DNA of 64,000 nucleotides from Betaproteobacteria bacterium. Lineage in GTDB: Bacteria; Pseudomonadota; Gammaproteobacteria; Burkholderiales; Burkholderiaceae_C. A program made the translations under genes and the position numbers. Positions 10,035 to 46,046 of this stretch are shown in pieces; the first letter of the stretch is position 1; the number at the start of each line of letters is the position of its first letter. A model generated the notes under the pieces. That model was given only the letters and a program-made list of their open reading frames with translations. It searched no databases and had not been told where the DNA came from. The stretch covers positions 5,266 to 69,265 of the forward strand of contig JANXLW010000158.1 in the NCBI GenBank assembly GCA_025354965.1, in the 5' to 3' direction.

Positions 10035-10078
10035 TCCCGGATACTAGCAAGTCGCGCCTTCATCTATAAAATGGCGCC

Positions 10079-25689: not shown

Positions 25690-26310
25690 GTGCACTTGGT
25701 CCAGACCTCTCTTCCCAAGCGGATCATCGTCGCCATCTCCGGCGCTAGCGGTGCTGTTTATGGTGTTCGCCTGTTGCAGATGTTGGCCGATCTGGGCAAC
25801 GTACAAACCCATTTGACAGTATCTGAAGCGGGTCTTTTGAATTTGCAGCAAGAGCAGGGCATGAACCGTGGCGATATCGAAGCATTGGCGCATGTGGTGC
25901 ACCCGGTGCACGATATCGGCGCGGTCATCGCCAGCGGTTCATTTCAATGCGACGGCATGGTCGTTGCGCCCTGCTCCATGCGGACATTGGCGGCGGTTGC
26001 GCACGGGTTGTCCGATAACCTGATTGCGCGTGCCGCCGACGTCATGCTGAAGGAGCGCCGTCGTCTGATTTTGGTGGTGCGCGAAACACCGTTGAATCTT
26101 GCCCATTTGCGCAATATGACCAGCGTGACAGAAATGGGTGGCATCATTTTTCCACCGGTGCCGAGTTTTTATCACCGACCACAGACGCTTGCCGATATGA
26201 TCGACCACACAGTGAGCCGGGTGATCGACTTACTAGGACTGCCGCAGCCGCACGCGCCGCGCTGGACGGGTCTGCTGCCCGCTGCGCCGATCGACCCCAG
26301 CGCCGAATAA
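25690..26310 (+). CDS. ubiX: Flavin prenyltransferase UbiX
   Basis: [23 protein letters not shown]...[14 protein letters not shown], the canonical UbiX/Pad1 sequence. Confidence 0.95.
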
Positions 26311-26317
26311 AAAAACC

Positions 26318-27802
26318 ATGGCTTACCGTGACTTGAGAGACTTCATCGCTCAACTGGAACATTTGGGTGAGCTCAAACGTGTTACCGCGACAGTCTCACC
26401 GTATTTGGAGATGACTGCCTTGTGCGACCGCGCTCTGCGCGCTGGCGGTCCCGCCCTGTTGTTTGAAAACCCGAGTGGTCACAGCGTGCCTGTGCTGGGA
26501 AACTTGTTTGGCACAACGCGTCGTGTCGCCATGGGGATGGGCGTGAGCGACGTCAGTGAATTGCGCCAGTTTGGCCAGGTGCTGGCGATGCTCAAGGAAC
26601 CTGAGGCACCCAAAGGGTTCAAGGATTTGATGGGCCTGGGCAACATGGTGAAAACGTTGTGGCACATGGCACCCAAGGAGCTGCGCAATGCCGCGTGTCA
26701 GGATGTGGTGTGGGACGGCAATGATGTTGACCTGGCACGCTTACCCGTTCAGCATTGCTGGCCCGGTGACGTGGCACCGCTGATAACCTGGGGCTTGGTC
26801 ATAACCAAAGGTCCGCACAAAGAGCGACAGAATCTTGGCATTTACCGGCAGCAGGTTTTGGCGCGCAACAAGGTCATCATGCGCTGGTTGGCGCAGCGCG
26901 GTGGCGCCCTCGATTTTCGCGAGCACTGTGCGCTCAATCCAGGCCAGCCCTATCCGGTGTGTGTGGCCCTGGGTGCCGACCCGGCAACGATTCTGGGGGC
27001 GGTGACGCCAGTGCCTGACAGTCTGTCGGAATACCAGTTTGCCGGGTTGCTGCGCGGTAGCCGGACCGAGCTGGTGAAAGCTTTGGGCAGCGAATTGCGA
27101 GTACCAGCCTCTGCTGAAATCGTTCTGGAAGGGCACATTTACCCGGATGTGTCGCACGCCAGCGGGTTCGAACACGCGCTGGAGGGCCCGTTTGGCGACC
27201 ACACCGGCTATTACAACGAGCAGGACTGGTTTCCGGTGTTCACCATCGATCGCATCACGATGCAGCGTGACCCTATTTACCACTCCACGTACACCGGTAA
27301 ACCGCCCGACGAGCCGGCCATGCTGGCGCTGGCCTTGAACGAGTTGTTTGTGCCGTTGTTGCAACGTCAATATCCCGAAATCACCGATTTTTACCTGCCG
27401 CCCGAGGGTTGCAGTTACCGCATGGCGGTAGTGCAAATCAAGAAGTCCTACCCCGGCCACGCGCGGCGCGTCATGTTTGGCATCTGGAGTTTTCTGCGCC
27501 AGTTCATGTACACCAAGTTCATTGTGGTGGTCGATGACGATGTCAATATCCGCGACTGGCAGGATGTGATCTGGGCCATCACCACGCGGGTTGACCCGAC
27601 ACGCGACACGCTGCTGGTGGACAGCACCCCGATCGACTATCTGGACTTTGCTTCACCCGTCAGCGGCTTGGGCAGCAAAATGGGACTGGACGCCACGAAC
27701 AAATGGCCCGGCGAAACCAGTCGCGAGTGGGGGCGCCCGATGCAGATGAGCGCCGAGGTGACAGCCAAAGTGGAGCAAGTTTGGCAGACTCTGGGTTTGT
27801 GA
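26318..27802 (+). CDS. ubiD: 4-hydroxy-3-polyprenylbenzoate decarboxylase UbiD
   Basis: 494 aa, [22 protein letters not shown]..., full-length UbiD-family sequence. Confidence 0.95.
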
Positions 27803-27834
27803 CGGTTATCGTCGCTTTACCGGAAAGGTAGCTC

Positions 27835-29109
27835 ATGGATTTCGAGTATTCGCCGCAGGTTCAGGCTTGGCGCCGGCGTTTGGAAGACTTCATCGAACGC
27901 TACGTATTGCCTTACAACGCCGCTTGGCATCTCTCAGTGTCGCAGGGCGTCTTTCCGCCACCATTCATGGAGGATCTCAAGGCGCTGGCCAAATCTGAAG
28001 GCCTATGGAATCTATTTCTACCCAGCCTGCACGACGATGAACCCGGTGTGCGCTTGAGCAATGTCGAATACGCACCCCTTGCTGAGATCATGGGTCGCTT
28101 GCCGTGGGCCTCAGAGGTGTTCAACTGCAGCGCGCCGGATACCGGCAATATGGAATTGCTGCATTTGTTTGCCACCCCTGAGCAAAACCAGCGCTGGCTG
28201 CGCCCGTTGCTGGATGGAGAGGTGCGTTCTGCATTCGCTATGTCCGAGCCCGACGTGGCTTCGTCGGATCCGACCAATTTGCAAACCCATGTGCGCCATC
28301 AGGACAACGAGTTGGTGCTCAATGGCCGCAAATGGTTTGTCACTGGCGCCGCGCACCCCAACTGCAAATTACTCATTGTGATGTGCCGCAGTGGCGACGA
28401 GGATGTCGGTAAGCACGCCCGGCACAGCATGGTGCTGGTGCCGATAGACACGCCCGGTGTCACACTGGTGCGCAATATTGCGATCATGCAGCACCACTCG
28501 CCCGAAGGGCATTGCGAAATTGTCTTCTCGAACGTGCGCGTGCCTGCAACGAATCTGCTGGGTCAGGAGGGTGCGGGCTTTGCCATGGCTCAGGCGCGCC
28601 TCGGTCCGGGGCGTATTCATCACTGTATGCGCACTATTGGCCAGTGCGAGCTGGCGTTGTCCATGATGTGTGATCGGACGCTGGAGCGCCACGTGTTTGG
28701 TAAATACTTGTCTGATTTCGCGAACGTGCAGGAGTGGATTGCAGAGTCGCGTCTGGAAATCGACCAGGCTCGACTGCTGGTGCTGCGAGCTGCCTGGCGG
28801 CTGGACCAAGGGAAACTCGCACAAGCCCGAGTTGACGTTTCAGCCATCAAAGTGGTGGCGGCGCGATTGCAGACCCGGGTGGTCAATCGCGCCATGCAAG
28901 TGTTTGGCGCCATGGGATTGTCACCCGACACGCCACTGGCCTATTTTTGGACCTGGGGCCGCGCCATGCAGTTGCTCGACGGCCCCGATGAGGTGCATTT
29001 GCGCACAATGGCTCGCCATGAACTGGATCTTGCCCGTCAATGTCGTGGCGCCACCGCGGCCTATTTCACGCTACCGGAGCAATTGCTGGCCGAGCCGCAC
29101 ATCCGCTAG
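27835..29109 (+). CDS. Acyl-CoA dehydrogenase family protein
   Basis: 424 aa. ACAD N/M/C domain order with the FAMSEPDVASSD motif, typical of the ACAD10/11-like subgroup. Confidence 0.85.
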   Translation: MDFEYSPQVQAWRRRLEDFIERYVLPYNAAWHLSVSQGVFPPPFMEDLKALAKSEGLWNLFLPSLHDDEPGVRLSNVEYAPLAEIMGRLPWASEVFNCSAPDTGNMELLHLFATPEQNQRWLRPLLDGEVRSAFAMSEPDVASSDPTNLQTHVRHQDNELVLNGRKWFVTGAAHPNCKLLIVMCRSGDEDVGKHARHSMVLVPIDTPGVTLVRNIAIMQHHSPEGHCEIVFSNVRVPATNLLGQEGAGFAMAQARLGPGRIHHCMRTIGQCELALSMMCDRTLERHVFGKYLSDFANVQEWIAESRLEIDQARLLVLRAAWRLDQGKLAQARVDVSAIKVVAARLQTRVVNRAMQVFGAMGLSPDTPLAYFWTWGRAMQLLDGPDEVHLRTMARHELDLARQCRGATAAYFTLPEQLLAEPHIR

Positions 29110-29132: not shown

Positions 29133-29561
29133 TCAGGAGTTTGCGCGCTTTTTGAGCCAGCGCATCAGACCGCCGACTACTGGAAGCTTCTCGTACAGCT
29201 CTTCCGCAGCGTCCCAGTAGTCACGGTGCAAAGTGATACGACCTGCGTCGTCAAGCACCAGGTGCGAGCCACCCAATATGACCTGCTCCATACGCGGCTT
29301 AAATTGTCGAAAGAAAAATCGGAATTCCCAGGTCAGAAAACATTGCCGACCGTCAATGATCCGCTGGTCAATAACGAAGCGCGGTGCCTCCAACTGGAGG
29401 TACATGTGTCGGAAAATGCGCTGGATAGATGCCACACCCCGTACATCATTGAAAGGGTCTTTAAAGCGGGCATCGCTAGCGTAGAGCTTGTCCAGTTGTT
29501 CGACCCGCTCAGGGGTCAGTCCTTCGAACACTTGCACAATGGATTCAACGGTATTTTTCAT
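29133..29561 (-). CDS. NTF2/SnoaL-like fold protein (last gene of lipid-modification operon)
   Basis: MKNTVESIVQVFEGLTPERVEQLDKLYASDARFKDPFNDV... about 142 aa. The start overlaps the SDR stop (ATGA). Confidence 0.65.
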   Translation of the reverse strand: MKNTVESIVQVFEGLTPERVEQLDKLYASDARFKDPFNDVRGVASIQRIFRHMYLQLEAPRFVIDQRIIDGRQCFLTWEFRFFFRQFKPRMEQVILGGSHLVLDDAGRITLHRDYWDAAEELYEKLPVVGGLMRWLKKRANS

Positions 29562-30334
29562 GAGCGTGTGAAGCGCCGTGTTGCAAGAAAAGTTGCGCGA
29601 TAAGGCAGCAGCTTCAAGGCCTTCATCCAATAGGTGAAGCGTTTCGGGAAATGGATCTCAAACGCGCCGCGCGCCCAGCCGCGCAATATCTCCTGTGCTG
29701 CAGTCTCGGAGCTGATCAAAGCGGGCATTTTGAATTGATTTTGTGCCGTTAGCGGTGTATCGACAAATCCCGGGTTGACCAGGGACACGCCGATGCCGTG
29801 GTCTTTCAAATCCAGGTACAGTGCTTCGGCGAGGTTGATCAACGCCGCCTTGGTGGGGCCGTAGGCCAGGCTGCCGGGCAAACCGCTGTAGCCAGCAACG
29901 CTTGCTACCAGGCTGATATGCGCCGGTGACCCGGGACGTGACAAAAAGTATGGCACGACGGCATTCAACAGATGCAGCGCACCCACATAGTTGATCTCGC
30001 AGTGGCGCAACATCTCGGTCAAATCGAAGTTGGTGACGCTCATTTCGCGGTAATGGCCCGCACAGTAAACGACGCAGTCGAGGTCTCCCTTTGTCAACGC
30101 AATGCTGAAGGCGTTGTCGACACTTAGCTGGTCGGTGCTGTCCAGGGGCAGGCTTAGTGCACCAGGGTGTTCGGCCACAAATGAGTTCAATGCGTCGACG
30201 CTGCGGGCAGACACAAGCACCGAGGCACCCAGCGCGTGCAGTGCCGAGGCAGTAGCGCGGCCGATACCGGTGGAGGCGCCAACCAGCCATACTGTGCGGC
30301 CAGCCCAGTCTTTGATGGGTGGGTTCAAGGCCAT
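29558..30334 (-). CDS. Short-chain dehydrogenase/reductase
   Basis: Cofactor motif VWLVGASTGIGRA, catalytic YGPTKAA, 258 aa. Confidence 0.9.
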   Translation of the reverse strand: MALNPPIKDWAGRTVWLVGASTGIGRATASALHALGASVLVSARSVDALNSFVAEHPGALSLPLDSTDQLSVDNAFSIALTKGDLDCVVYCAGHYREMSVTNFDLTEMLRHCEINYVGALHLLNAVVPYFLSRPGSPAHISLVASVAGYSGLPGSLAYGPTKAALINLAEALYLDLKDHGIGVSLVNPGFVDTPLTAQNQFKMPALISSETAAQEILRGWARGAFEIHFPKRFTYWMKALKLLPYRATFLATRRFTRS

Positions 30335-30342
30335 AACTGCGC

Positions 30343-30888
30343 TTATCTTTTAGTAAACGACAGCGTCACTTCGCCTAGTCGCACGCCGAACTTGCTCATG
30401 CTCGCCCGGTTGAGCATCACCCGGTCATTCATCAGGTACATCCAGTCGTCAAACTGCACCTCGTAGACCTTCCCGTCTACCGGTAGCGCCATGGTGTATT
30501 GCCAGTTAAAGGCGTTACCGCGCTGCTGTCCCGTTGCATCACCCACGACATCGGCAGCCCGGCCGATATAGCGGCCATCGGCCAGTCGCTGCAAGTGCCA
30601 AATCCGTTTTTGCCGGGTGCCGTCGGCGTAATTGAAGTCTTCGTCGAGCAGGCCCTCATCACCTTGCCAGCTGCATTTCATCAGTACGCTGAAGCGCCTG
30701 ACGACCTTGCCGGAACGGTCAGTGAATACGCCGTAGGCGTCCAGGGTTCCGTTGAAAAAGTCGCGCAGTTCGAGTACCGGTACTTCATTCGCGTAATCAT
30801 TGATTTGCTGGGAGCTGCAGCCGACCAGTGCCGCGATCGCCGCGACGAGTGCCAGTGCGCGTGCAATCAGGCGTTTATGTTGGTTCAT
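30343..30888 (-). CDS. DUF3833-like lipoprotein
   Basis: MNQHKRLIARALALVAAIAALVGC with lipobox LVGC, then FFNGTLDAYGVFTDRSGKVVRRF...DDWMYLMND. The family assignment is from memory of DUF3833. Confidence 0.65.
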   Translation of the reverse strand: MNQHKRLIARALALVAAIAALVGCSSQQINDYANEVPVLELRDFFNGTLDAYGVFTDRSGKVVRRFSVLMKCSWQGDEGLLDEDFNYADGTRQKRIWHLQRLADGRYIGRAADVVGDATGQQRGNAFNWQYTMALPVDGKVYEVQFDDWMYLMNDRVMLNRASMSKFGVRLGEVTLSFTKR

Positions 30889-32172
30889 AGTGCTTTCAGT
30901 TGAATCCGAGGTTGAATGTTGAAGATGTAGAGCGTTCCAGCGGCGAGAGCCTTCAGTGCGCAAGGCAACAAGCAATAAGCTACGGTCAAAGCCTGTAAGG
31001 TATGAGGTTCGCGTGCGCCCGGGGCGTAACCCAACAGGCTTAGCATCGGCAGTGTCAGACCGGCAGCAAGAGCAAGATTAAGTTTTGCTGGCAAGGTTCC
31101 ACCAGCCAAAATATGCGCCTTCAGATTGACCATGACCGCCTGCATCCAGAATGACACCGGCAAGCAGCGCCCCCGGTAGCGCCAGGTCGCTACCCAGGGC
31201 GACTCCCGACAATGCACAGACGATTAGAAATAAGCCTGTGTCGCCTGCATGTAGCTGTGTCGCTCCAAGAAAGACAGTGATCGACAGGACCATCCCAATT
31301 AGCCAGCAACGCACCAGCCCCCAACGCTTGACACCCAGCAACCAGAGCGGCATCGACAACGCCCCGCAGACAAAGTAGCAGCCCAGGAATGCCGCCTGCA
31401 TAACCTCAGGCGCTTGCAGTTTGTCCTGAATAAAGAACAGCACCAGCGTCGCAGGCACAGCGCTGGCGATGCCGTTGAGCATGAACACCGCCAACAGGCG
31501 TCGAAAGGCGCTGATGCGCCAGGGATGCCAAACACTGTAAGCCGGTGCCTTCGAGCCGACAGTGCGGAGCACCCGCGAAACGGGGTGTACAGCCCTCGTC
31601 CAGCCCAGCCAGCCCAGCAGCAAACTGGCTGCAAACAGAGCCAGCATGGCGGTCTTACCGATTAGTGACGGGGTCAGCGCGGCCAGCACCACCCCGACCA
31701 GCCCCAAGCCTTCGCGCCAGAACACAATGCGACTACGCTGCGTCGCGTCGCCACCCAGCATGGCACCCCAGGATTGGTGCGCCACAGTGATTGCGCTGTA
31801 GGCGCTGTAAGTGACGATGAGCAATGCAGTTGCCCAAAGTAGCAAAGCCTCTGGTTCTCGGGTCGGCGGAAAGAATAAAAGCGCAAAACTGCCTGCCAGC
31901 ACAAGGGCGCAGATGCCGCAAAAAACCAGTACCGAGCGCAGCGAACGAGCATAGAGGTTGTCACACACCCGCCCGAGCAGGGGATCTGTTACAGCATCGA
32001 GCAGTCGCGTGCCGAGCAGTATCGCGCCCAATGCGTTCAGGGACACGCCAAACTCTCGTGCATAGAGATCTGGCAGCATCACATACAAAGGCAGGGCGCA
32101 AAAGGCCAGCGGAAAACTCATCAAACCGTATTTGAAGCCATCCAGCGGACTCAGCGTATATTTGGAAATCAT
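30885..32172 (-). pseudogene. MFS_2/GPH-type permease, interrupted by a +1 frameshift in an A4 run
   Basis: The 364-aa ORF (31078..32172) ends ...GAYFGWWNLASKT*. The C-terminal ~65 aa continue in another frame (AKLNLALAAGLTLPMLSLLGYAPG..., ORF 30885..31217). The junction is at agcAAAActt (31083-31086). The downstream frame keeps the ATGA coupling to the next gene. Confidence 0.75.
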
Positions 32173-32301
32173 GGGGCAGCGCTGCTATATCTCAACACTG
32201 GGTCGCCGCCCGCAAAGGCCGCCGGTCACCCGAGCCAAAGACAGCATCCGAGCGAAAGATGCGGCTAGCCGCTGTCAATGGAATAGAGACAACAAGCTGT
32301 T

Positions 32302-33550
32302 TCATGACAAAGGTTTTTGCAAGGTGTATTGCACCAGGTTGATGTCGCCGGACTCAAAAGCTGCTTCGCAATAGCTCAGGTAAAACTCCCAAATTCGCAT
32401 AAAGCGTTGGTCAAAACCCTGCAGCGCAATGTCAGCCTTGCGCTGCAGGAAAGCGTCACGCCAGCGTCTCAGGGTTTCGGCATAGTCCGCGCCAAAGAAA
32501 AACTCGTCTTGCACCAACAAGCCGGCGGCAACGGCCTGTCGGCGAAACTGATCGGGGCAAGGCAGGCAACCACCCGGAAAGATGTATTGCTGGATGAAGT
32601 CGGTCGACTTGATGTAGCGTGCGAACAAAGCATCGTCAATCACGATGCTCTGGATGCAAGCCAAGCCACCGGGTTTCAGCAGCCGACTAATCGTCTGGAA
32701 GTATTGTGGCCAGTAGGAACGACCTACGGCCTCGACCATCTCAATGGAACAAATGGCATCAAAAGGTTGGTCACGGATGTCCCGGTAGTCTTGCAGCCGC
32801 AGATCGGCGGTTTGTCGCGGGCCGGTGGCAACGCCCAGATTGTCCAGTCGTAAGTTGGCATACGCCAGTTGCTCGCGGCTCAAGGTCACACCAACGACCG
32901 AGGCACCGAATTGCCGGGTAGCTAATTCGGCCAGTGCGCCCCAACCGCACCCGATCACCCGGTCTGACTTTGGCCATTTGCAAGGCGCGCTGCACCTTGG
33001 CGTCTTGCGCCGCTCGCAACGACCGCGTCTGATCTCCATCAAACCAGGCCGAGGAGTAGTTCATGCTTTCGTCCAGCCAGAGCTGATAAAAGGTGTTGCC
33101 CAGGTCGTAATGTGCGTGGATGTTCTTGCGGCTGTTGGCGCGGCTATTGTGTTTAAGCAGGTGCTTGATCCGGTACAACAAACGACCCGCCCAGCTACCA
33201 AAAATCACATCATCGAGCTCGCGACGATTAGCCACAAACACCTTGAGTAATGCGCTCAGGTTAGGTGTGCACCAGTCGCCGGCGATGTAGCTTTCGGCAA
33301 AGCCGATATCGCCGGATTTCAGCGCGGCGCCAAAGACATTCCAGTTTTGCAAGGTAATTGAGGCGCTGGGGCTGGCTTGGCTGCCGGGGTTGTGTTGATG
33401 CGGATGTACGCCAAAACGGCGAACCGAACCGTCCGGCAATTGAATCGTCAAGTCGCCATGGCGTAAACGTTGCAGCAGCGCCAGCGCTGTGCGAGCACTG
33501 GCAGGTGCATCGTGAGGAAAGGAAAGGGGGGTGGCGATGGCGGTGTTCAT
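32302..33550 (-). pseudogene. Cyclopropane-fatty-acyl-phospholipid synthase-like SAM methyltransferase, frameshifted at the SAM-binding motif
   Basis: The N-terminal frame (32771..33550) reads correctly to ...QMAKVRPGDRV. The SAM motif IGCGWGALAELA and the rest (ORF 32302..33042) are in another frame. The junction is ccgggtgatcgggtgcgg at 32948-32965. Confidence 0.75.
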
Positions 33551-33584
33551 GAGTGATCAGTGTTCTGAGATAAAACTGGATGTG

Positions 33585-34376
33585 CTATCGGGTCACAAAA
33601 ACGTCAGGAGCTCGCGGTTTTTTGAAGAAGTTCACGTTTTTGAGCCAAAGCCGTGCAGCCTGCAGATGAATGTGAAAAACCACCCCCAACGTCAATGCCG
33701 GATAGCGCCAAAGCGCTTTGCGCAGTGAAGCTTTGGTTATGGCTTCCAACGTGCCGTTGACGCTGGTCTGTAGCAGCGGGCCATTGGCATCGTCATGGTC
33801 GATGCGGGCTACGGTTCTTTCCTGACCCGCTCGCATTGCGCGCATGAAGCGAAAGCGATAGCAGCCCTCGACCTGGCAGAACGGTGATACGTGAAATACC
33901 TTGGCTGCGCTTACTTCAACACCCCATTGCGGCTCATCGAGAAGGTAACAATGCCGTTCCCCAAAAGTGTTGTTGACCTCCACTACGATGGCCCGCAGGG
34001 AGCCACCCTGGTCGTTTGCAGCCCGATGGCAATACCAGAAGCTCACTGGTTTGAAGGTGTAGCCCAGCACGCGCGGATAACAATGCAACCAGATTTCACC
34101 GGTGGCGTCCGCAATGCCCTGGCCTGACAACATCTCGTCAAGCCAGCTCAGGGAGCCGCCTTGCTCTGGCGGACGGCCATCGCCATGGTCGCTGTCAAAA
34201 AAACTCAGTGCGGCAGACCGGTTGATCGCCAGTGGACCAATCTCGTCGCCAGTGTTATGTGCAAGCGTGCGCATCGGTAGTAACAGGAAATAGGTTGGAT
34301 AGGTGAAGGCGTTGTGCATCGGTCGAACACGCGTGTGTCGGACCTGCCCGAAGCCGATCAGGGGATCGTTTTTCAT
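33585..34376 (-). CDS. DUF1365 family protein
   Basis: 263 aa. GQVRHTRVRPMHNAFTYPTYFLLL...LSFFDSDHGDG...VFHIHLQAARLW, typical DUF1365 sequence. ATGA overlap with the upstream FAD gene. Confidence 0.8.
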   Translation of the reverse strand: MKNDPLIGFGQVRHTRVRPMHNAFTYPTYFLLLPMRTLAHNTGDEIGPLAINRSAALSFFDSDHGDGRPPEQGGSLSWLDEMLSGQGIADATGEIWLHCYPRVLGYTFKPVSFWYCHRAANDQGGSLRAIVVEVNNTFGERHCYLLDEPQWGVEVSAAKVFHVSPFCQVEGCYRFRFMRAMRAGQERTVARIDHDDANGPLLQTSVNGTLEAITKASLRKALWRYPALTLGVVFHIHLQAARLWLKNVNFFKKPRAPDVFVTR

Positions 34377-35707
34377 ACCAGTTCCCTCGCACCCATGCCG
34401 GCGTCACTCAGTAGCTGCCGGGCCGCCGCCAGTCCGGCCTTAAGTCCGTCTTCGTGAAAGCCATAGCCCATCCAGGCGCCGCAGAAGTAGCAGTCTTGTA
34501 GCCCTTGCAGCGCCGGTATCATCTTCTGCGCCGCAATGGCTGCCAGATCGAGCACCGGATGCTCATAGTCATAGACACCCAGGATAAGACTGGTGTCGAT
34601 CTCACGGATGGGATTGAGCGACACCACGACCGGTTGTTGCCACGGCAGGGGTTGTAGCCGGTTTATCAGGTAGTGCAGGCAAACACTGGCGTCTACTTCA
34701 TCACCAGTTGTCGACCGCTCGTAGTTCCAGGCTGCCCAGGCGAGCTTGCGGCTCGGCAACACCGAACTGTCGGTGTGCAGCACGGCTCGATTCGCGTGAT
34801 ATTTGATGGCGCCCAGGCTTTGCTGCTCCGGCAAAGTTGGTTCACGCAGCATCGCCAGTGCCTGATCAGAGTGGCTGGCGATGATGACCTTGTCAAATCG
34901 CTCACAGGTGCTGTCAGTACCAACGAGAACACCCGCATCTTGACCGTCGTTAGCAGACTTGCGTGTGATCTGGCGAACCCTTGTGTTCAGGCGCTTATCA
35001 GCGACTTTCGCGGTGATTTTCTTGACGTAGTGTTTGGCGCCGCCGTTAACGGTCCACCACTGGGGGCGCTGGCTGATCTGGATCAGGCCATGGTTATGAC
35101 AAAAGCGGATCATGGTGGAAACCGGAAAGCGCAGCATCTGTTCGGTTGGGCAACTCCAGATGCAGGCCATCATGGGCAGGAAATACCAGTCCCGAAACTC
35201 ACTGCTGAAGCGGTGCTCCAGTAAAAAGTCACCCAATTCCTGAGTTAGCTCGCTCTCGGTGCCACCTGAGGCGATGTGACTGGTAATCCGGTTGAACTGC
35301 AACAACTCGCGCAGCATGTTCAGAAAGCGCCAGTTAAGCAAATTGCGTCGCTGCGCAAACACCGTGTTCAAATTGCATCCGCTCCACTCCAATACCGACT
35401 GGCTGGTGGCATCGCTGGTCTGTACCGAAAATGACATATCGGACTTGGCAATGGGTACGCCCAATTCGGAGAACAGGCGGATCAGGTTCGGATAGGTCCG
35501 CTCATTCAGCACCAGGAAGCCGGTGTCAACACCTTGCGTGACCATGCCTAGCGGCGATGGCAATGTGACATCCACCGTGTGGGTGTGACCGCCAAAATAT
35601 GACCCTGTTTCAAACAGGGTCACTTGCGCCGCGTCCGCCAGCACGTGCGCTGCTGCCAAACCGGAGACGCCAGAGCCGATGATGGCTACTTTCATGGGTG
35701 TCGCCAA
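34373..35707 (-). CDS. NAD/FAD-binding oxidoreductase (amine oxidase / phytoene-desaturase-like fold)
   Basis: MKVAIIGSGVSGLAAAHVL dinucleotide motif. 444 aa. First gene of the operon. Confidence 0.85.
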   Translation of the reverse strand: MATPMKVAIIGSGVSGLAAAHVLADAAQVTLFETGSYFGGHTHTVDVTLPSPLGMVTQGVDTGFLVLNERTYPNLIRLFSELGVPIAKSDMSFSVQTSDATSQSVLEWSGCNLNTVFAQRRNLLNWRFLNMLRELLQFNRITSHIASGGTESELTQELGDFLLEHRFSSEFRDWYFLPMMACIWSCPTEQMLRFPVSTMIRFCHNHGLIQISQRPQWWTVNGGAKHYVKKITAKVADKRLNTRVRQITRKSANDGQDAGVLVGTDSTCERFDKVIIASHSDQALAMLREPTLPEQQSLGAIKYHANRAVLHTDSSVLPSRKLAWAAWNYERSTTGDEVDASVCLHYLINRLQPLPWQQPVVVSLNPIREIDTSLILGVYDYEHPVLDLAAIAAQKMIPALQGLQDCYFCGAWMGYGFHEDGLKAGLAAARQLLSDAGMGARELV

Positions 35708-35742
35708 AGCAGGAAAGTAAAAAATATAAAAATAGACTGGTT

Positions 35743-35776
35743 GGTCATAAAAGGACTATATAGTATTTTTATGACC
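35743..35776. promoter_or_regulatory. 34-bp near-perfect palindrome, candidate TetR operator
   Basis: GGTCATAAAAggACTATATAGTatTTTTATGACC. The outer 10-bp arms and the inner 10-bp core are perfectly symmetric. It sits centrally in the 107-bp AT-rich divergent spacer. Confidence 0.5.
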
Positions 35777-35814
35777 TTTGTATTTATATCAGAATCCAAA
35801 TTGACTACAATGCT

Positions 35815-36462
35815 TTGGTGAGCACCAGCAACGTCGTCAAAATATCATTCAGGGAGCAGATGCTGCAGGCGCGCGAAACCGCCATCATCCAGGCGGTTAA
35901 TCGCTTACTGGCCGAAAGAGGTTTTGAGGCCATGACGGTGGATCAAGTGGCTATCGAAGTAGGCATCGCCAAGGCCAGCCTGTATAAGCACTTTCCCAGC
36001 AAGGAGGATCTGGCAGCTGCGGCCATGGTCTGGGTTATGCGGCGCGCGCAAGCGTATTTGGCCACCCTCCCGTCTGATGCGTCACCGATGGACAATCTTC
36101 GTGCGGTTGTAGGCTGGACCATGGCCTTGAAGCTGGCTGGCGAAATGCCGTCCCTGCCCAGCCAGAACTCCAGCTTGCGTGCCGCGTTGGTCAGCAACAA
36201 GGACTATATGGACGGGCTGATGGAGGTAAGCGACATCTTGGGCGCATGGATCGAAGCGGCCCAGTCGCAAGGTGCGCTCAACGCGAAGTTGCCAGCCATT
36301 GCGGTCTTGTACACGATCTTTGCCCGTGCCTGCGATCCGGTGCTGGAGTTCCTGAAGATGGGCCAGCAATACAGCGATGAAGAGATCGTCGAGTTGGTGT
36401 TAAGCACATGTTTTGATGGGCTAGGCTCCCGCGCGAACTTCAGACAAGAAACAAACGGATAG
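35815..36462 (+). CDS. TetR family transcriptional regulator
   Basis: HTH TVDQVAIEVGIAKASLYKHFPSKEDL. 215 aa. Divergent from the operon. Confidence 0.9.
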   Translation: MVSTSNVVKISFREQMLQARETAIIQAVNRLLAERGFEAMTVDQVAIEVGIAKASLYKHFPSKEDLAAAAMVWVMRRAQAYLATLPSDASPMDNLRAVVGWTMALKLAGEMPSLPSQNSSLRAALVSNKDYMDGLMEVSDILGAWIEAAQSQGALNAKLPAIAVLYTIFARACDPVLEFLKMGQQYSDEEIVELVLSTCFDGLGSRANFRQETNG

Positions 36463-36669
36463 CTGCAAGGGCGGTACCAGCACGACGTACGCGCTGGCCG
36501 TTACCGTAGTAGATGCGGGCAACGGGTTTCCTGTTGCAGACCCTCCTTTGAATAGCTCCTATCAATCGCTTAGTCAAAAGCAATTGGCTTAAACGATTGC
36601 TTATCGCTACCATTCACTTCGATCTGATCGAAATTGTCTATCAGAGAAGCACTTAACAAACAGGAATTC

Positions 36670-37167
36670 ATGATGACTCAAACGCAACGTCCCGACATCA
36701 AAACCACGGCCAATTTGGAGGCTGCTTTTGCCGGCGAATCAATGGCGCATATCAAATACCGCTATTTTGCAAAATTGGCCCGTGAAATGGGTGATGAGGA
36801 TACGGCCCGCACCTTTGAAGAGACCGCGAGCCAGGAAATCTTGCACGCCTTTGGGCACCTGGATTTGCTTTACCCAAAGGCCGCCATGACACCTGCCAAA
36901 GCGCTGCAGATCGCGATTGATGGAGAAACCTATGAGTACACCGAGATGTACCCTGGTTTTCGCAAAATCGCCGAAGAAGAGGGCCAGGCGGCGGCGGTAG
37001 CAGAAATGAACGAGCAGATTAAAGAGAGCAAGTTGCACGCTGCTCAGTTCAGTGTGGTACTGGAAAAGGCTCAAAAGCGCTTTGCAGCGCTGGCCAAAGT
37101 GGAAGAGCGTCATGCCAAGCACTATCAGGCACAACTGGCCAGGGTGATAGCACCGGTGGCATCCTGA
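36670..37167 (+). CDS. Rubrerythrin-family diiron protein lacking a fused rubredoxin domain
   Basis: Ferritin-like four-helix signature: [38 protein letters not shown]. Start set at MMTQTQ. Confidence 0.85.
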
Positions 37168-37208: not shown

Positions 37209-37373
37209 ATGAAAACCTATCTCTGCATTGTTTGTGGCTTTGTCTATGACGAGGCCACCGGTCGACCTGAAGACGGCATTGCGGCCGGTACCGCATGGGC
37301 TGATGTGCCCGATTCCTGGGCCTGCCCGGACTGTGGCGTGGCCAAGGCTGACTTCGAAACAGTCGAAATATGA
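37209..37373 (+). CDS. Rubredoxin (54 aa; below the ORF-track length cutoff)
   Basis: My translation is [54 protein letters not shown], with both CxxCG knuckles. The stop overlaps the reductase start (ATGA). Confidence 0.9.
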
Positions 37374-38599
37374 TTGTCACGCCTGCCACTTCCCCTGTCA
37401 TCATCATTGGCGCCGGTTTGGCGGGTTGGACCACAGCGCGCGAGTTTCGCAAGCTTGACGGCACCACACCGGTAACGATGATCACTGCGGACAGTGGTGA
37501 CTTTTATGCCAAACCCTCCTTGTCAAATGCATTTGCGCAGGGTCGCGTTCCTGCCCAACTGGTGAGTACACCGGCGGTCAGGATGGCAGACACGCTCAAG
37601 GTCACGTTACTTGCCCACACCGAGGTTCAGGCAATCCACCCGGCGAACAAGAAAATCACCACTTCACAGGGGGAGCTTGGTTACAGCCAGTTGGTGCTGG
37701 CAACTGGCGCGAAGCCGATCCGAGTCGCGGTGGGCGGCGACGCATCGGATCAGATACGGTCCATCAACTCGTTGACTGAATTTTCCGCGTTCCACGCGCG
37801 TTTGACGGGTTCGGGACGTAAAGTCAAGCATGTCCTGATCATGGGCGCTGGACTGATTGGTTGCGAGTTCGCCAACGACCTTGTCGGTTCCGGCTATGAC
37901 GTGACGGTGGTCGATCCGTCGCCCGCGCCGATTGCCGTGCTCTTGCCGCGGCAAGTCAGCGAGCAGTTGCGTGCAGCATTGACCGCATTGGGTGTGACGT
38001 GGCATTTCGGAGTGACCGTCAAGGAAGTTAGGGGTGCAATGGACAACCAGCAGCCAATAAATCCCGATTCAACCGTCACACCAATGCAGGTTGAGCTATC
38101 CAACGGGCATCTGGTGCACGCCGACTTGGTGTTGAGTGCGGTAGGTCTGAAGGCAGACACAACATTGGCCGAGGCCGCTGGTCTGATATGCGATCGTGGC
38201 GTGCTGGTTGACACAACCTTGCAGACCAGTGCATCATTTATCTATGCCTTGGGCGATGCCGCCCAGTACGCGGCGGGTAGCTGGGACGCTGACGGTGCAG
38301 TTACAGGCGGTCGAACGTTGCCCTACGTGCTGCCCGCTATGGGCGCCGCCAGGGCCTTGGCCGCCACCCTGGCAGGCAAGCCAAGCAAGGTGGTATTTCC
38401 ATTGATGCCAATAGTGATCAAGACTCCGGCGTTACCAATTGTGGTGGCGGCTCCGGCCACTGGCACACCCGGTGAATGGCGCAACCGTGAAACTGATCTT
38501 TGGCAGTTCCTCGACCAGCAAGAGAAAGTGCGCGGATTTGTGTTGACCGGAAACCAGACTATCCGGCGCGCAGAGCAGGCCAAACTGACGATTGCTTGA
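37370..38599 (+). CDS. NAD(P)H-dependent rubredoxin reductase-like FAD oxidoreductase
   Basis: [14 protein letters not shown] (FAD) and [14 protein letters not shown] (NADH) motifs. 409 aa. Coupled to rubredoxin. Confidence 0.85.
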
Positions 38600-39422: not shown

Positions 39423-40190
39423 TTAAAGCAATAGCAGCGCCGCCAGGGCACTCAATGCAGCAGTTTCAGCGCGTAGCACGCGCGGCCCAAGCGTAACCGG
39501 CAAAAAGCCGCAAACTAGAGCTGACTCTTCCTCTGCGTTGCTCAAGCCACCCTCTGGGCCAGATAGAAATGTCGCGGCGGCATCTGCGGTGGACAATCTG
39601 GTGATGGCTGCACTGAGGCTGGTGGTCTCGGGTCGCAGGGAAAGCAGCAAAGACGGTCTTGTTGGTGCGTCTGCGGTGAGTTGGATCGCGGACCACGCCT
39701 TGGCCCAGGTGGCAAACCCCATAACCTCATGAATTTGTGGTACCTGGTTTCCGCCACATTGCTCGCATGCCGCTACCGCCACACTTTGCCAATGTGCTAC
39801 TTTTTTACCCGCCCGCTCCCCTGAGAGGCGTAGCACGCTGCGCTCGGTTATCAAGGGACGGATGCTAGCCACGCCAAGTTCAGTCGCCTTTTCCACCAAC
39901 CAGTCCATGCGCTCATTGGCCGGCATGCCCACAACAAGGTGAACTCGCCTTGTTGGTTCACGCTCGACAGGCGAATGACGACCCACCTGTACTTGTACGT
40001 CACTTCGACCCATGCGCGTGATGGTTGCCTCAAATTCGCCCGTCACGCCGTCGTCGCCAGGCCCGCCATTGAACAGCGTGATGCTGTCACCGGGTTGCAA
40101 TCGCAGCACTTGCACGTGCCGAGCCGGGCCGGCCGGCAAGTCCAGAAACTCGCCAGTGGTGAGCCAAGTGGGGCAATAAAAACGAGGCAT
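39423..40190 (-). CDS. rsmE: 16S rRNA (uracil1498-N3)-methyltransferase
   Basis: MPRFYCP...HVQVLRLQPGDSITLFNG...SGPEGGLS, RsmE signatures. Confidence 0.9.
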   Translation of the reverse strand: MPRFYCPTWLTTGEFLDLPAGPARHVQVLRLQPGDSITLFNGGPGDDGVTGEFEATITRMGRSDVQVQVGRHSPVEREPTRRVHLVVGMPANERMDWLVEKATELGVASIRPLITERSVLRLSGERAGKKVAHWQSVAVAACEQCGGNQVPQIHEVMGFATWAKAWSAIQLTADAPTRPSLLLSLRPETTSLSAAITRLSTADAAATFLSGPEGGLSNAEEESALVCGFLPVTLGPRVLRAETAALSALAALLLL

Positions 40191-40271
40191 GAGGTAGTGC
40201 AAAAGTATGTCGATTTGCTATGCAATAGGTGGCGACTCGATAGCGCTGGCATTCATCGCAAAAAATAGCAA

Positions 40272-41360
40272 CTAATTTCTGCCGAAGGTATAGCTGCTCG
40301 CAGTTTCAATTCCCTCGACGCGCTCAATCAAGCGAAGTAGCGGTTTAAGTTCGCGGTAGCGCTCGCAGGTAGCACGTAGATAGTTGATAAAGCGTGGTGT
40401 ATCCGCCAGGTACTGCGGCTTGCCATCGCGCAGCGTGAGTCGGGCAAAAATGCCGGCCACTTTCAAGTGACGCTGCAGCCCCATCCAGTCGACTGCGCGG
40501 TAAAAATCACCAAAGTCGTGACCTACCGGCAGGCCGGCTTTTCGAGCCTTTTCCCAATAACGGATGGTGATATCAAGACAAAAATCCTCTTCCCAGCTCA
40601 GGAACGCATCGCGCATCAGACTGGCAATATCGTAAGTGATGGGGCCATACACCGCGTCCTGAAAATCCAGCACACCGAGGCACGCATGCTTGGCATCACC
40701 GGAGATCATTAGGTTTCTGGGCATAAAGTCGCGGTGCACATACACGCTGGGCCAGGCCAGATTGCGAGCAATGATGGTTTCAAAGGACTGGTCAAGTATG
40801 CGTCGCACGTCGCCATCGACTGCCACCCCCCGGTGGGCTGTCAGATACCAGGTGGGGAATAGTTCCAACTCGCGTCGCAACAGCGCTTCATCATAGGGCG
40901 GCAGCACACCAGGAACTGATGCTGTCTGCCACGCAATCAGCGCGTCAATGGCTTGCAGATACAGACTCTGGTTGGAGTGTGGCTGGCTCTGGTCAAGCAC
41001 CTGCATCATGGTTTGCGCACCCAAATCGGTGAGTAACATGAAGCCATTGTTTTTATCCCAAGCCAGCACCTGTGGCACGTTTACCCCGGCCTCCCGCATT
41101 AGCTGGGCCACTTTGACGAAGGGGTGACAGTCTTCCCTGTCGGTTGGCGCGTCCATGATAATGTAACTGCGGTGCGACGAATCAACGCGGAAATAGCGTC
41201 GAAAACTCGCGTCTGCCGAGGCATTACGCACCGAGTTGATAATCAGACCGTGGGCGCTTGCCTCCGCCGCCAGCCAGGCGTTGAATTCGACGGCGCGTCG
41301 TGCGTCGGACCAGACGGGAGCAATGACCGCAACGGATTCAGGATTCTTGGCTTGGCTCAT
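40272..41360 (-). CDS. Aminoglycoside-phosphotransferase-fold kinase, AmgK-like (anomeric MurNAc/GlcNAc kinase family)
   Basis: 362 aa with kinase motifs VHRDFMPRNLM and LDFQDA. Divergent from lptD, as for amgK in pseudomonads (recalled synteny). Confidence 0.7.
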   Translation of the reverse strand: MSQAKNPESVAVIAPVWSDARRAVEFNAWLAAEASAHGLIINSVRNASADASFRRYFRVDSSHRSYIIMDAPTDREDCHPFVKVAQLMREAGVNVPQVLAWDKNNGFMLLTDLGAQTMMQVLDQSQPHSNQSLYLQAIDALIAWQTASVPGVLPPYDEALLRRELELFPTWYLTAHRGVAVDGDVRRILDQSFETIIARNLAWPSVYVHRDFMPRNLMISGDAKHACLGVLDFQDAVYGPITYDIASLMRDAFLSWEEDFCLDITIRYWEKARKAGLPVGHDFGDFYRAVDWMGLQRHLKVAGIFARLTLRDGKPQYLADTPRFINYLRATCERYRELKPLLRLIERVEGIETASSYTFGRN

Positions 41361-41438
41361 GGATAATCCATTCTACAAACTTGACCGCTCTGGTGTTCGT
41401 TTTCAACCTGCCCAAATGATCGATACCACCTCTGCCCG

Positions 41439-43856: not shown

Positions 43857-43862
43857 TCAATC

Positions 43863-45230
43863 ATGACCCATCGCCTTTTTCTTCTGAGCATCGCCAGTGT
43901 TGCTTTGCTTGCGTCCTTCACATCGCATGCACAGGGTTTGCGGCCGTCTGCCAGCACTGGAATTGGCGCGCCCGTTCTCCGCGTCCAGTCCGGCCCGCAG
44001 CTTCAGGCCGATTTCATCGTGGCTGTAGTCAATTCCGAGCCCATCACCAATAGCGAGGTGCAGTCGGAACTGCAACGAGTGCTGCAACAATTGACTCAAC
44101 AGCGCAGGGCTGTGCCGGACCGCAAAGAGCTGGAGCGCCAGGTTCTCGAGAGCCTTATCAATCAGAAGGTACAGCTTCAACTGGCGCGTGAGTCTGGTAT
44201 TCGTGTCGATGAGGCAGCGGTTGACCAGGCGCTACAAAACATCGCCCGCCAAAATCAGATGGACGTGGGCGAATTGCAGCGCCGGATTGCCGCCGAGGGT
44301 GGTGTCCTCAGCCAGTTTCGGGCTCAACTGCGGGACCAACTCATGCTGACCCGTTTGCGTGAGCGCGACGTCGAGCCACGCGTGCGAGTATCCGATCTTG
44401 AAGTCGACCAATACCTGCGCGAACAGCAGAACAATAAAGATCCCGCAGCCATTGAAATCAATCTGGCCCAGATACTGGTGAACGTGCCGGATGCGGCCAC
44501 CTCAGAGCAGATTTCGGCCCTGCAAGCCAAGGCCCAGCGCGCGCTGGATCGTGCCCGTGCCGGCGAAGACTTCGGCCTCCTGGTGGCGGAATTCTCGGAT
44601 GCCTCAGATCGCTCCAACGGAGGCCGGCTTGGTTTGCGTACAGCAGACCGCTATCCGCCATTGTTCATCGAGGCGACCCAATCCTTGGGCGTTGGGGAGC
44701 TCGCTGCGATAGTGCGCTCAGGCGCTGGCTTTCACGTACTTAAAGTAGTTGAAAAGAAAAGTGCTGGCATGCCTGCCATGACCACAACGCAGAGTCGGGC
44801 ACGACATATTCTGTTGCGTGTCAGCCCGCAATTGAGCGAGGCCGCCGCGCGCGACAAGTTGAACGAATTCAAGAAGCGCATCGTGGCCGGGCAGGCCGAT
44901 TTTGCGGCGCTGGCGCGGGAAAATTCCCAGGATGGCAGTGCCGCTCAGGGCGGCGACTTGGGGTGGGCCAATCCGGGCATGTTCGTGCCGGAGTTTGAGG
45001 AGGTTATGAACCGTCTTGTGCCGAGTCAAATCAGCGACCCGCTGGTGTCGCGCTTTGGCGTCCACCTAATTCAACTCGTTGAACGTCGCAGCGCCACGTT
45101 GAATCCGCGCGAGCAACGCGAGTCGGTGCGAGCCATGTTGCGGGAAAAAAAGCTTGACGAAGTCTACGTCAATTGGGCGCAGGAGCAGCGTGGCCGCGCT
45201 TACGTCGAACTGCGCGAGTCACCGCTATAA
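43863..45230 (+). CDS. surA: Periplasmic chaperone / peptidyl-prolyl isomerase SurA
   Basis: Signal peptide and two parvulin domains (GGRLGL..., GGDLGW...). 455 aa. Confidence 0.93.
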
Positions 45231-45247
45231 GGCCCAGCACCTACCAC

Positions 45248-46030
45248 ATGAAACACGTTCCTCGCAAACGGTTTGGACAGCATTTTCTGGCCGATAGCGG
45301 CATTGTTGAAACAATTGTCAATGAGATTGCACCCAAGCCGGGGCAGACTATGGTGGAAATCGGACCTGGTCTGGCGGCCCTGACACAGCCGTTGGTGGAG
45401 CGCCTGGGTCACCTCACAGTTATTGAGTTGGACCGCGACCTGGCGCAGCGCCTGCGCTCGCATCCGCAGCTTACCGTGATTGAATCTGATGTGCTGAAAG
45501 TGGACTTAGCCGAGCTTGCATGCTCCGCGGCGACCGCCAGCAACACAAAATTCAGAGTAGTTGGCAACTTACCCTACAACATCTCCACACCCATATTGTT
45601 TCATTTGCTGAAGTTTGTCGAAGTTATCGAAGACCAGCATTTCATGCTGCAAAAGGAAGTTGTCGACCGGATGGTGGCGAGCCCAGAGACCTCGGATTAT
45701 GGTCGTTTGAGCGTTATGTTGCAGTGGCGTTATTCCATGGAAAATATACTTTTGGTGCCGCCTGAGAGTTTCCAGCCGCCGCCGCGGGTTCACAGCGCAG
45801 TGGTGCGCATGGTGCCGCGCGAGGACCCGGCGGTCATTGATGTCACACTCTTGAGTGAACTTGTGCAAGTTGCCTTTAGTCAACGCCGCAAACTGATGCG
45901 CCATACGTTGGGCAAATGGCTTTTTGAGCGGGAATATCCAGGTGAGTTTGACGTCCAGCGTCGCGCTGAAGAAGTCCCGGTGACCGAATACCTGGCATTA
46001 GCAGAGCAAATTAGCAATGCCGGACATTAG
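45248..46030 (+). CDS. rsmA: 16S rRNA (adenine1518/1519-N6)-dimethyltransferase
   Basis: [14 protein letters not shown]...[10 protein letters not shown]...NLPYNISTP. Confidence 0.95.
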
Positions 46031-46046
46031 AGGACTCAATGCCAAG

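Follow-up and report, generated by a model that had tools for sequence, protein, structure and literature searches.

A recently pseudogenised copy of a probable photo-oxidative-stress lipid operon beside a divergent TetR gene in a betaproteobacterial contig

The DNA studied here (the window) is a stretch of 64,000 nucleotides (nt) from contig JANXLW010000158.1 of the betaproteobacterial assembly GCA_025354965.1. Between positions 29133 and 36462 it holds a run of seven same-strand open reading frames (ORFs) that resemble lipid-modifying enzymes and their companions, together with a divergently transcribed TetR-family regulator gene. A first-pass annotation, made from the sequence alone, had taken the run for a larger undescribed system. 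The question is therefore whether this locus represents such a system or a variant of one that is already known, and whether the copy in this genome can work at all. With a probability of about 0.7 we regard it as the Comamonadaceae version of a conserved proteobacterial photo-oxidative-stress lipid operon that is controlled by the TetR protein and has been pseudogenised here.

Pfam searches on the minus strand (29133-35707) returned the seven families in the order given by the first-pass annotation. The first gene encodes an oxidoreductase of the amine-oxidase type that depends on flavin adenine dinucleotide (FAD) and is UfaD-like (34373..35707, intact; Amino_oxidase 2e-16, NAD_binding_8 3.7e-10); its start is probably the ATG at 35695, giving 440 amino acids (aa) as in relatives. 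It overlaps by 4 nt with the DUF1365 gene of the UfaO family (33585..34376, 263 aa, intact; PF07103 E=1.4e-72, profile positions 3-234 of 235). Next come a pseudogene for CMAS, a methyltransferase that resembles cyclopropane fatty acid (CFA) synthase and uses S-adenosylmethionine (SAM) (32302..33550, in the two frames 33550..32771 and 33042..32302), and a pseudogene for an MFS_2/GPH-family permease (30885..32172, MFS_2 over the two frames 32172..31078 and 31217..30885). The last three genes are intact: a DUF3833 lipoprotein gene (30343..30888, 181 aa from ATG 30888, lipobox LVGC; E=8.7e-71), a short-chain dehydrogenase/reductase (SDR) gene (29558..30334, 258 aa; adh_short E=1.5e-33) and a SnoaL_2/NTF2-like gene (29133..29561, 142 aa from ATG 29561; SnoaL_2 E=1.6e-12), the product of which has no signal peptide. 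The 129-bp gap between the CMAS and MFS_2 genes contains the remnant of an eighth gene of the Chalcone_3 family, chalcone-isomerase-like or CHI-like (32131..32305). The TetR gene lies on the plus strand (35815/35818..36462; TetR_N, PF00440, E=3.7e-15, residues 24-70), and its GTG at 35818 is the counterpart of the ATG in relatives. Overall five genes of the operon are intact, two are pseudogenes and one has been deleted.

The family assignments of the first-pass annotation were thus all correct and so was the order, but its picture of seven genes has to be amended, as the CMAS and MFS_2 genes are broken and the CHI-like gene is lost. The three 4-nt ATGA overlaps that it had reported are present at 34373-34376, 30885-30888 and 29558-29561 (where the SDR stop overlaps the NTF2-like start), and there is an additional one at 32302-32305. 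It had also described a 107-bp spacer with a 34-bp palindrome in front of the divergent TetR gene. All of these elements exist and 107 bp is the length by longest ORFs, but the spacer measures 122 bp if the real starts are set by comparison with relatives (ATG 35695 and GTG 35818).

The nearest protein matches belong to Comamonadaceae, among them Rhodoferax and Polaromonas. Four contigs of close relatives carry an eight-gene operon, intact where seen, with 89-92% nucleotide identity to the window: L087 (NCBI metagenome-assembled genome (MAG) GCA_005795805.1), L088 (ENA assembly ERZ27300037) and L089 (NCBI MAG GCA_037141865.1) at ~89% each, and L090 (JGI metagenome 3300045970) at ~92%. The L090 contig stops inside the SDR gene, with its SDR and SnoaL genes outside view. 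In these relatives the order and sizes are FAD (440 aa), DUF1365 (263 aa), CMAS (420 aa), Chalcone_3 (182 aa), MFS_2 (428 aa), DUF3833 (181 aa), SDR (258 aa) and SnoaL_2 (142 aa). This is the ancestral local form: FAD, DUF1365, CMAS, CHI-like, MFS_2, DUF3833, SDR and NTF2-like. The intact proteins of the window match closely, with 91% identity to L087 over 440 aa for the FAD protein and 92% in a single frame for the SnoaL_2 protein. L087-L090 and the window also share the synteny UbiX-UbiD-acyl-CoA dehydrogenase, operon, TetR and, further on, LptD-SurA-RsmA.

Against these relatives the window shows three lesions. The CMAS gene has a 14-nt deletion at 32948-32955 within the GDRVLEIGCGWG SAM-binding motif, and Pfam CMAS positions 3-66 and 69-272 fall in different frames. 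The motif region is GATAGGTTGCTGGAGATCGGCTGC in L087 and GATCGGGTGC in the window, where it reads CCGGGTGATCGGGTGCGGTTGG. All 69 retrieved CMAS orthologues (69/69) encode G-x-R/K-[VIL]-L-E-[ILV]-GCGWG in 36 nt and in frame. Programmed frameshifting in CMAS was considered and ruled out, given that the lesion removes residues of the motif and that every orthologue is in frame. The permease gene has a +1 frameshift from one additional A: the window has AAAA at 31084-31087 where relatives have AAA, within GCCAGCAAA(A)CTTAA (relatives GCCAGCAAACTTAAC, window GCCAGCAAAACTTAAT), and the gene is split into frames of 364 aa and ~70 aa. From the CHI-like gene ~435 nt are gone. Its ATG at 32305, overlapping the CMAS stop, and ~12 recognisable codons are kept (MKQLVVSIPLTAAS, with the L090 counterpart MKKMAVGLLLTG), and window positions 32131-32287 stand in place of L090 1894-2485.

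An operon that is intact in the organism, with both frameshifts and the missing gene as sequencing or assembly errors, would also produce such a picture. The permease lesion is indeed of a typical error type, one additional base in an A-run, and the broken genes show ratios of nonsynonymous to synonymous substitution rates (dN/dS) as low as those of the intact genes. A 14-nt deletion in CMAS and the loss of ~435 nt of the CHI-like gene with diverged flanks are, however, not homopolymer errors. Another indication comes from a different assembler: the Logan assembly of SRR20627849 is 100% identical to window 29302-34077 (4776 nt), both frameshifts included. This assembly is probably from the same sample, which leaves room for errors in the reads themselves. 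None of the 14 other genes shared with L087 shows a frame break, and thus the lesions are specific to the operon and do not reflect poor sequence quality. We therefore consider errors a highly improbable explanation.

The operon of this genome is a recently pseudogenised copy. For each operon gene, the broken ones included, dN/dS between the window and its relatives is 0.07-0.29. The low values show a gene family under purifying selection, and as they hold even for the broken genes the decay in this genome is recent. With frameshifts in methylase and permease and without the CHI-like gene, the pathway cannot run from this locus alone. The first-pass annotation did not weigh that the window copy cannot work as encoded.

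Two further TetR-linked copies seem to be damaged as well. In L098 the SDR is shortened to 114 aa (2006-2350), and in L099 the MFS, DUF3833 and CMAS/DUF1365 genes are split or fused, although the sequence quality of L099 is doubtful because its GDT1 gene is also split. Recurrent loss of the operon would suggest that it is dispensable in some habitats. We also observed a mosaic of synonymous divergence (dS) along the operon. For the FAD gene dS is 0.13 between the window and L090 and 0.40 between L090 and L087, whereas for DUF1365 the corresponding values are 0.39 and 0.06. This mosaic suggests recombination between lineages inside the operon.

How widespread is the gene set? We compared the window proteins by tblastn with 80 species-representative loci anchored on DUF1365, and the counts were taken in the 62 Comamonadaceae/Burkholderiales loci with enough downstream sequence. 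SDR was found in all 62, CMAS in 60, the CHI-like, MFS_2 and DUF3833 families in 58 each and SnoaL in 48; all six downstream families occurred together in 43 of the 62 loci. Beyond Comamonadaceae we read clusters from plasmids and chromids with existing annotation. In Azoarcus sp. KH32C all eight genes recur in unchanged order beside a MerR-family gene. The Pseudoalteromonas cluster consists of sigma, ChrR, photolyase, NTF2, SDR, FAD, DUF1365, CFA, DUF2878, CHI-like and DUF3833 genes. Paracoccus encodes fasciclin, FAD, DUF1365, CFA, MFS, SDR and TspO divergently from a sigma/anti-sigma pair, and Azospirillum has ChrR and sigma divergent from FAD, DUF1365, CFA and DUF3833, with NTF2 and SDR convergent. 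The Burkholderia cluster has a sigma/anti-sigma pair with lipocalin, FAD, DUF1365, CFA and a CHI-like gene. The gene set is thus shared by beta-, gamma- and alphaproteobacteria, in which it stands under regulators of the ChrR-sigmaE or MerR/B12 kind. The co-occurrence of the downstream families with the core, which the first-pass annotation had proposed as a check, is borne out, and the neighbourhood is common and already annotated.

The chemistry of the core is known from two alphaproteobacteria. In Rhodobacter sphaeroides UfaM (RSP2144) adds a methyl group to phospholipid-bound vaccenate, UfaD (RSP1091) then desaturates the methylated product and UfaO (RSP1090, DUF1365) closes the furan ring with O2 (Lemke et al. 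2020, PMC7380195). A single operon, ufaD-ufaO-ufaM (RPA2571-2569), is necessary and sufficient in R. palustris, and UfaO of both species has the DUF1365 domain (PMC7380195). The window encodes a DUF1365-family protein with the FAD gene directly upstream, which by domains and order agrees with RSP1091-1090 and RPA2571-2570. A functional SAM-dependent acyl-chain methylase is missing, as the CMAS gene, intact with 420 aa in L087-L090, is frameshifted. The link that the first-pass annotation had drawn from the FAD, DUF1365 and CMAS trio to UfaD/UfaO/UfaM furan fatty acid chemistry is sound, judged by family and gene order (PMC7380195). By homology, intact UfaM-, UfaD- and UfaO-type enzymes of this operon (methylase, FAD desaturase and DUF1365 oxygenase) would act on phospholipid acyl chains and together yield methylated, diunsaturated and furan fatty acids.

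Structure comparisons added little to this. The best solved relative of the FAD protein is LkcE (2e-29). A PDB sequence search with DUF1365 found nothing. Its AlphaFold2 (AF2) model, built from 20 sequences with a predicted local distance difference test (pLDDT) score of 66, had no match at E<=0.001 in a Foldseek search against the PDB; a weak similarity to calycins and fatty-acid-binding proteins (best TM-score 0.39) was not relied on.

The published R. sphaeroides operon RSP1091-1087 extends beyond the two core enzymes. RSP1089 is listed as a GPH-family sugar/cation symporter, RSP1088 as a hypothetical protein and RSP1087 as an SDR (PMC7074977 Table 1), and the genes are RpoE (sigmaE)-dependent and induced by singlet oxygen (PMC7074977 Table 1; PMC5507510 Table 2). 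RSP1088 (186 aa) is labelled a lipoprotein only via its P. syringae match PSPTO_2515 (PMC5507510 Table 2). According to the papers citing it, Dufour et al. 2008 defined a core regulon with eight members, rpoE, chrR, phrB, cfaS, RSP1087, RSP1088, RSP1090 and RSP1091 (PMC5507510, PMC3546557), conserved in 45 of 73 species (PMC5507510).

The window corresponds to this operon in having the FAD, DUF1365, MFS_2/GPH permease and SDR genes in the same relative order, with MFS_2, lipobox DUF3833 and adh_short downstream of the core in one same-strand run. The SDR is the positional counterpart of RSP1087 (PMC7074977 Table 1). RSP1088 occupies the DUF3833 position, and we equate the two by position and not by alignment. 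In both systems the core chemistry would concern phospholipid acyl chains and the accessory genes have no assigned role. There are also differences. The R. sphaeroides operon is divergent from rpoE-chrR and sigmaE-dependent, whereas that of the window is divergent from TetR with its own putative operator; ufaM (RSP2144) lies outside the R. sphaeroides operon, whereas CMAS lies inside that of the window but is broken; and the window lineage has CHI-like and NTF2-like genes beyond the RSP1091-1087 set.

Other known loci show similar combinations. R. palustris RPA2571-RPA2568 (ufaD-ufaO-ufaM-RPA2568) has the FAD desaturase, DUF1365 and CMAS-type methylase in the same order in one operon, but in the window the methylase is a pseudogene, and the Comamonadaceae CMAS is matched to UfaM, as opposed to FufM or a true CFA synthase, by family and order only. 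P. syringae DC3000 PSPTO_1121-1114 (phrB...SDR, amine oxidase, hypothetical, cfa) combines SDR, FAD, DUF1365-type and cfa genes in one stress-induced unit, so that also in gammaproteobacteria the core is accompanied by the accessory SDR (PMC5507510). This unit differs in being photolyase-linked and under extracytoplasmic function (ECF) sigma control (PSPTO_1043/ChrR-like pair), in its unlinked lipoprotein homologue and in having no TetR. The Azoarcus sp. KH32C cluster on plasmid pAZKH (AZKH_RS26020-25985, annotated only) is identical in gene set and order, but all its genes are intact, its divergent regulator is a 300-aa MerR-family protein and the TAC-N6-GT site described below is absent upstream of FAD.

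These parallels bear on the view of the first-pass annotation that all seven genes belong to one larger working system that had not been described. In that view the lipid, after furan-type modification, would be altered again by the SDR and NTF2-like proteins, and the permease and lipoprotein would carry it over the inner membrane. Coupling among the accessory genes is tight, their conservation extends over three proteobacterial classes, and the genes are under purifying selection (dN/dS 0.1-0.29). The predicted locations span the envelope, with an inner-membrane MFS_2 protein, a CHI-like protein with a signal peptide and a lipobox-bearing DUF3833 protein; the permease profile fits the lysolipid transporter MFSD2A as well as MelB, and the NTF2-like protein resembles ketosteroid isomerase and epoxide hydrolase. 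Nevertheless the system is not undescribed, because the permease, RSP1088 and SDR genes were published as part of the R. sphaeroides operon (PMC7074977; PMC5507510) and have been deleted singly (PMC7380195), and RSP1087 and RSP1088 belong to the 2008 core regulon as cited in PMC5507510. For the same reason the annotation was mistaken in granting a described parallel to the first three genes only, as RSP1089, RSP1088 and RSP1087 parallel three of the four others, with genetics. Single in-frame deletions of RSP1087, RSP1088 and RSP1089 left the phospholipid fatty-acid profile the same (PMC7380195). Furthermore, with the permease and methylase broken and the CHI-like gene lost, nothing is moved in this genome. 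We consider this view unlikely. The remark that the permease, lipoprotein, SDR and NTF2-like protein have no known biochemical role still holds, as within the set of papers searched we found no later one that assigns a role to accessory genes of the RSP1087-RSP1089 type.

The sequences of the accessory proteins give some indications. As a single sequence the permease had no match in a PDB search, but its profile finds the lysophosphatidylcholine symporter MFSD2A (3.9e-12) and MelB (1.9e-11) as best solved relatives, about equally well. A profile of four NTF2-like orthologues matches ketosteroid isomerase and limonene-1,2-epoxide hydrolase weakly (E=1e-6 to 1e-4). The CHI-like proteins carry N-terminal signal-like sequences, and the lipobox Cys24 of DUF3833 is invariant in the orthologue alignment. 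PDB sequence searches with the DUF3833 and CHI-like proteins gave no match, and an AF2 model of DUF3833 made without an alignment is all-beta with a pLDDT of 49 and was excluded from the fold search. CHI-fold proteins include plant fatty-acid-binding proteins. These features are compatible with the handling of a lipid or a lipid-oxidation product across the envelope.

We now turn to the regulation, for which the TetR gene is the only adjacent candidate. No ChrR/ECF sigma pair adjoins the operon in the 64 kb seen, in agreement with the first-pass annotation, which had named TetR instead of an ECF sigma/anti-sigma pair as the local regulator. The protein has a TetR_N helix-turn-helix domain and the spacer holds a conserved inverted repeat. 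The putative operator region (35735..35776) comprises two inverted repeats of the TAC-N6-GT type within or beside the palindrome GGTCATAAAAGGACTAT/ATAGTATTTTTATGACC (35743-35776; 34 bp, 15/17 positions complementary). One site, GACTATATAGTA at 35754-35765, is the centre of the palindrome and the other, GACTGGTTGGTC, is at 35735-35746. We aligned the spacers of 13 loci with a divergent TetR gene, the window included. Although these spacers are 43% identical on average, TAC and GT do not vary in either of the two sites, which lie ~20 bp apart, and the consensus is AATACTGTATAGTC ... (G/T)ACCAATnGGTA. The strict dual-site pattern occurs in 34 loci, each time only just upstream of the FAD gene; as the two sites together form a near-palindrome, several loci match on either strand. 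Of 71 loci, 40 have a perfect 12-mer TACYN4RGTM in the 370 bp upstream of FAD, whereas 0.45 loci would be expected (~90-fold), based on a background rate of 0.017 per kb per strand. Single 12-mer matches in the window alone are not significant (3 compared to 3.9 expected), and the support for the candidate operator is comparative.

The divergently encoded TetR protein most likely represses transcription of the operon. Its targets would be the two TAC-N6-GT repeats, spaced at ~20 bp and placed between promoter region and first gene, and a ligand would release the protein from the operator. DesT and FabR are examples of lipid-sensing members of the TetR family. Among solved structures, AefR of P. 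syringae (PDB 3cdl) comes closest to the TetR protein of the window (9e-9). Divergent repressors of the AefR type have in common with our locus the N-terminal TetR helix-turn-helix, the divergent layout and a duplicated short inverted repeat in the shared spacer. The similarity to AefR itself is weak (E=9e-9, mostly in the DNA-binding half), and in contrast to divergent TetR systems the gene of the window type is not always beside its operon.

The TetR orthologues have 76-95% identity and come from at least 120 clusters among the matches listed. The gene adjoins the operon in L001, L002, L007, L009-011, L016, L018, L024, L025, L027, L060, L087-093 and L098-099, and of the TetR lineages looked up four have it beside the operon and two away from it. 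Of the 40 loci with a 12-mer, 31 (Comamonadaceae) have no adjacent TetR gene, for example Rhodoferax lacus (L066). The simplest reading would be that one TetR regulator serves this operon across the family and is encoded either adjacent or elsewhere.

It could also be that the inverted repeats are bound by another regulator, such as a MerR/B12 LitR-like protein or a global factor, and that TetR is an unrelated neighbour or regulates the rubrerythrin-rubredoxin genes behind it. This would explain why the motif is present in those 31 loci, several with a LitR-like gene instead, and why TetR orthologues exist away from the operon. In the window and in L090-092 rubredoxin genes also follow TetR on the same strand. 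On the other hand, the motif lies exactly between the divergent genes in every TetR-linked locus, which is the classical TetR layout, and these loci have neither LitR nor glutathione peroxidase genes. The MerR-linked cluster of Azoarcus has no motif, and the clusters of Pseudoalteromonas, Paracoccus, Azospirillum and Burkholderia likewise lack the TAC-N6-GT site upstream of FAD. Nor does the linkage to rubredoxin hold across loci, being absent in L002 and degraded in L087-089, and an orthologous TetR elsewhere in the genome would account for motif-bearing loci without a neighbouring TetR gene. A regulator other than TetR is thus quite improbable.

Several observations nevertheless count against the TetR-controlled, furan-type operon that we favour. 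A perfect 12-mer site is lacking in 31 of the 71 loci. Rhodoferax saidenbachensis and one abundant uncultured lineage encode TetR orthologues with 78-80% identity that are not located beside any operon of this kind, and TetR may therefore have other targets or act in trans. All nine proteins tested were below the cutoff of every NCBIfam model; for CMAS the CFA-synthase models gave 260 bits with a cutoff of 400. The product, a furan or another methylated or oxygenated acyl chain, is assigned from family membership and the R. palustris ufaD-ufaO-ufaM gene order. Finally, by analogy with R. sphaeroides, the genome could encode another methylase at a different locus and so sustain the pathway in part; a second CMAS gene was not found within the 64-kb window.

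The surroundings of the regulator differ between loci. In L096 (Rhodoferax saidenbachensis, 10001-10618) and L097 (9001-9624) the TetR gene lies in the context LysR - FAD protein - LysR - TetR; neither a furan-type operon in the surrounding 9-10 kb nor an operator-like site close by was found. Among the 64 loci without an adjacent TetR, 37 have a signal-peptide-bearing glutathione peroxidase gene directly upstream of FAD on the same strand (for example L030 7840-8478 and L047 6951-8603), and the TAC-N6-GT site then lies between the two genes. A divergent MerR/B12-binding regulator of the LitR/CarH type was found in 13 of the 64, and in these genomes light-dependent control may therefore be layered on. 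In the window, a sigma-70-like TTTATA-17-TACAAT (35783-35811, plus strand) ends 7 nt before the TetR GTG at 35818. A TetR mRNA from these hexamers, whose match quality is not above chance in the region scanned, would be leaderless or nearly leaderless.

Taken as a regulatory variant, pseudogenised here, of a known system that modifies fatty acids in defence against light and oxygen, the locus offers little that is novel as a system, because the core chemistry and the neighbourhood have already been published. The new part is the probable TetR control with its conserved operator, whereas the function of the accessory genes is an old question that dates from 2008 and that single deletions did not reveal. 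The TetR/operator pair would be the third regulatory solution for the same stress-lipid operon, after ChrR-sigmaE and MerR/B12, and a TetR deletion would be a simple handle to turn the operon on in cultivable Comamonadaceae such as Polaromonas sp. CF318 (L027) and Polaromonas sp. CT11-55 (L025), whose TetR-linked operons are intact. The full set of eight genes is now defined, with predicted cytoplasmic, inner-membrane, periplasmic and lipoprotein members. The window copy itself is a poor experimental subject and a clean example of the dispensability of the operon in some lineages; the conserved operator and the list of relatives with an intact operon are useful by-products.

A more far-reaching proposal is tentative and, on balance, doubtful. 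In Comamonadaceae a dedicated TetR sensor with a dual TAC-N6-GT operator may have replaced sigmaE-ChrR and LitR control, in cis or in trans, and may answer a signal that derives from lipids, for instance a furan acyl chain or an oxidised one; at the same time the permease, CHI-like, DUF3833, SDR and NTF2-like proteins may form an envelope-spanning route that removes, repairs or relocates oxidised sacrificial lipids. If so, this route would be invisible in whole-cell fatty acid methyl ester profiles of single R. sphaeroides mutants.

The remaining observations concern the flanks. The TetR gene is followed on the plus strand by rubrerythrin (36634-37167), rubredoxin (37209-37373) and a rubredoxin reductase (37370-38599) that has an Rbx_binding domain. 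Rubrerythrin is missing in L090-L092, with rubredoxin next to TetR, and L087-L089 retain only an Rbx_binding remnant of 64-85 aa. A role of rubredoxin and its reductase as an electron donor dedicated to the operon was considered and rejected, as the linkage is not conserved. An Rfam scan of the window found no RNA families, and together with the tblastn queries no further operon-related element was detected across the 64 kb. The flanks at 25690-29109 and 39423-46033 consist of housekeeping genes in synteny with relatives (UbiX-like flavoprotein, UbiD, acyl-CoA dehydrogenase, RsmE-like methyltransferase, APH-type kinase, LptD, SurA and RsmA). In 24 loci a conserved ferritin-like protein of 286 aa with weak FA_desaturase_2/AurF matches (cluster c2; for example L030 6786-7646 and L015 7562-8425) is encoded near the operon, and this nearness may reflect only conserved synteny.

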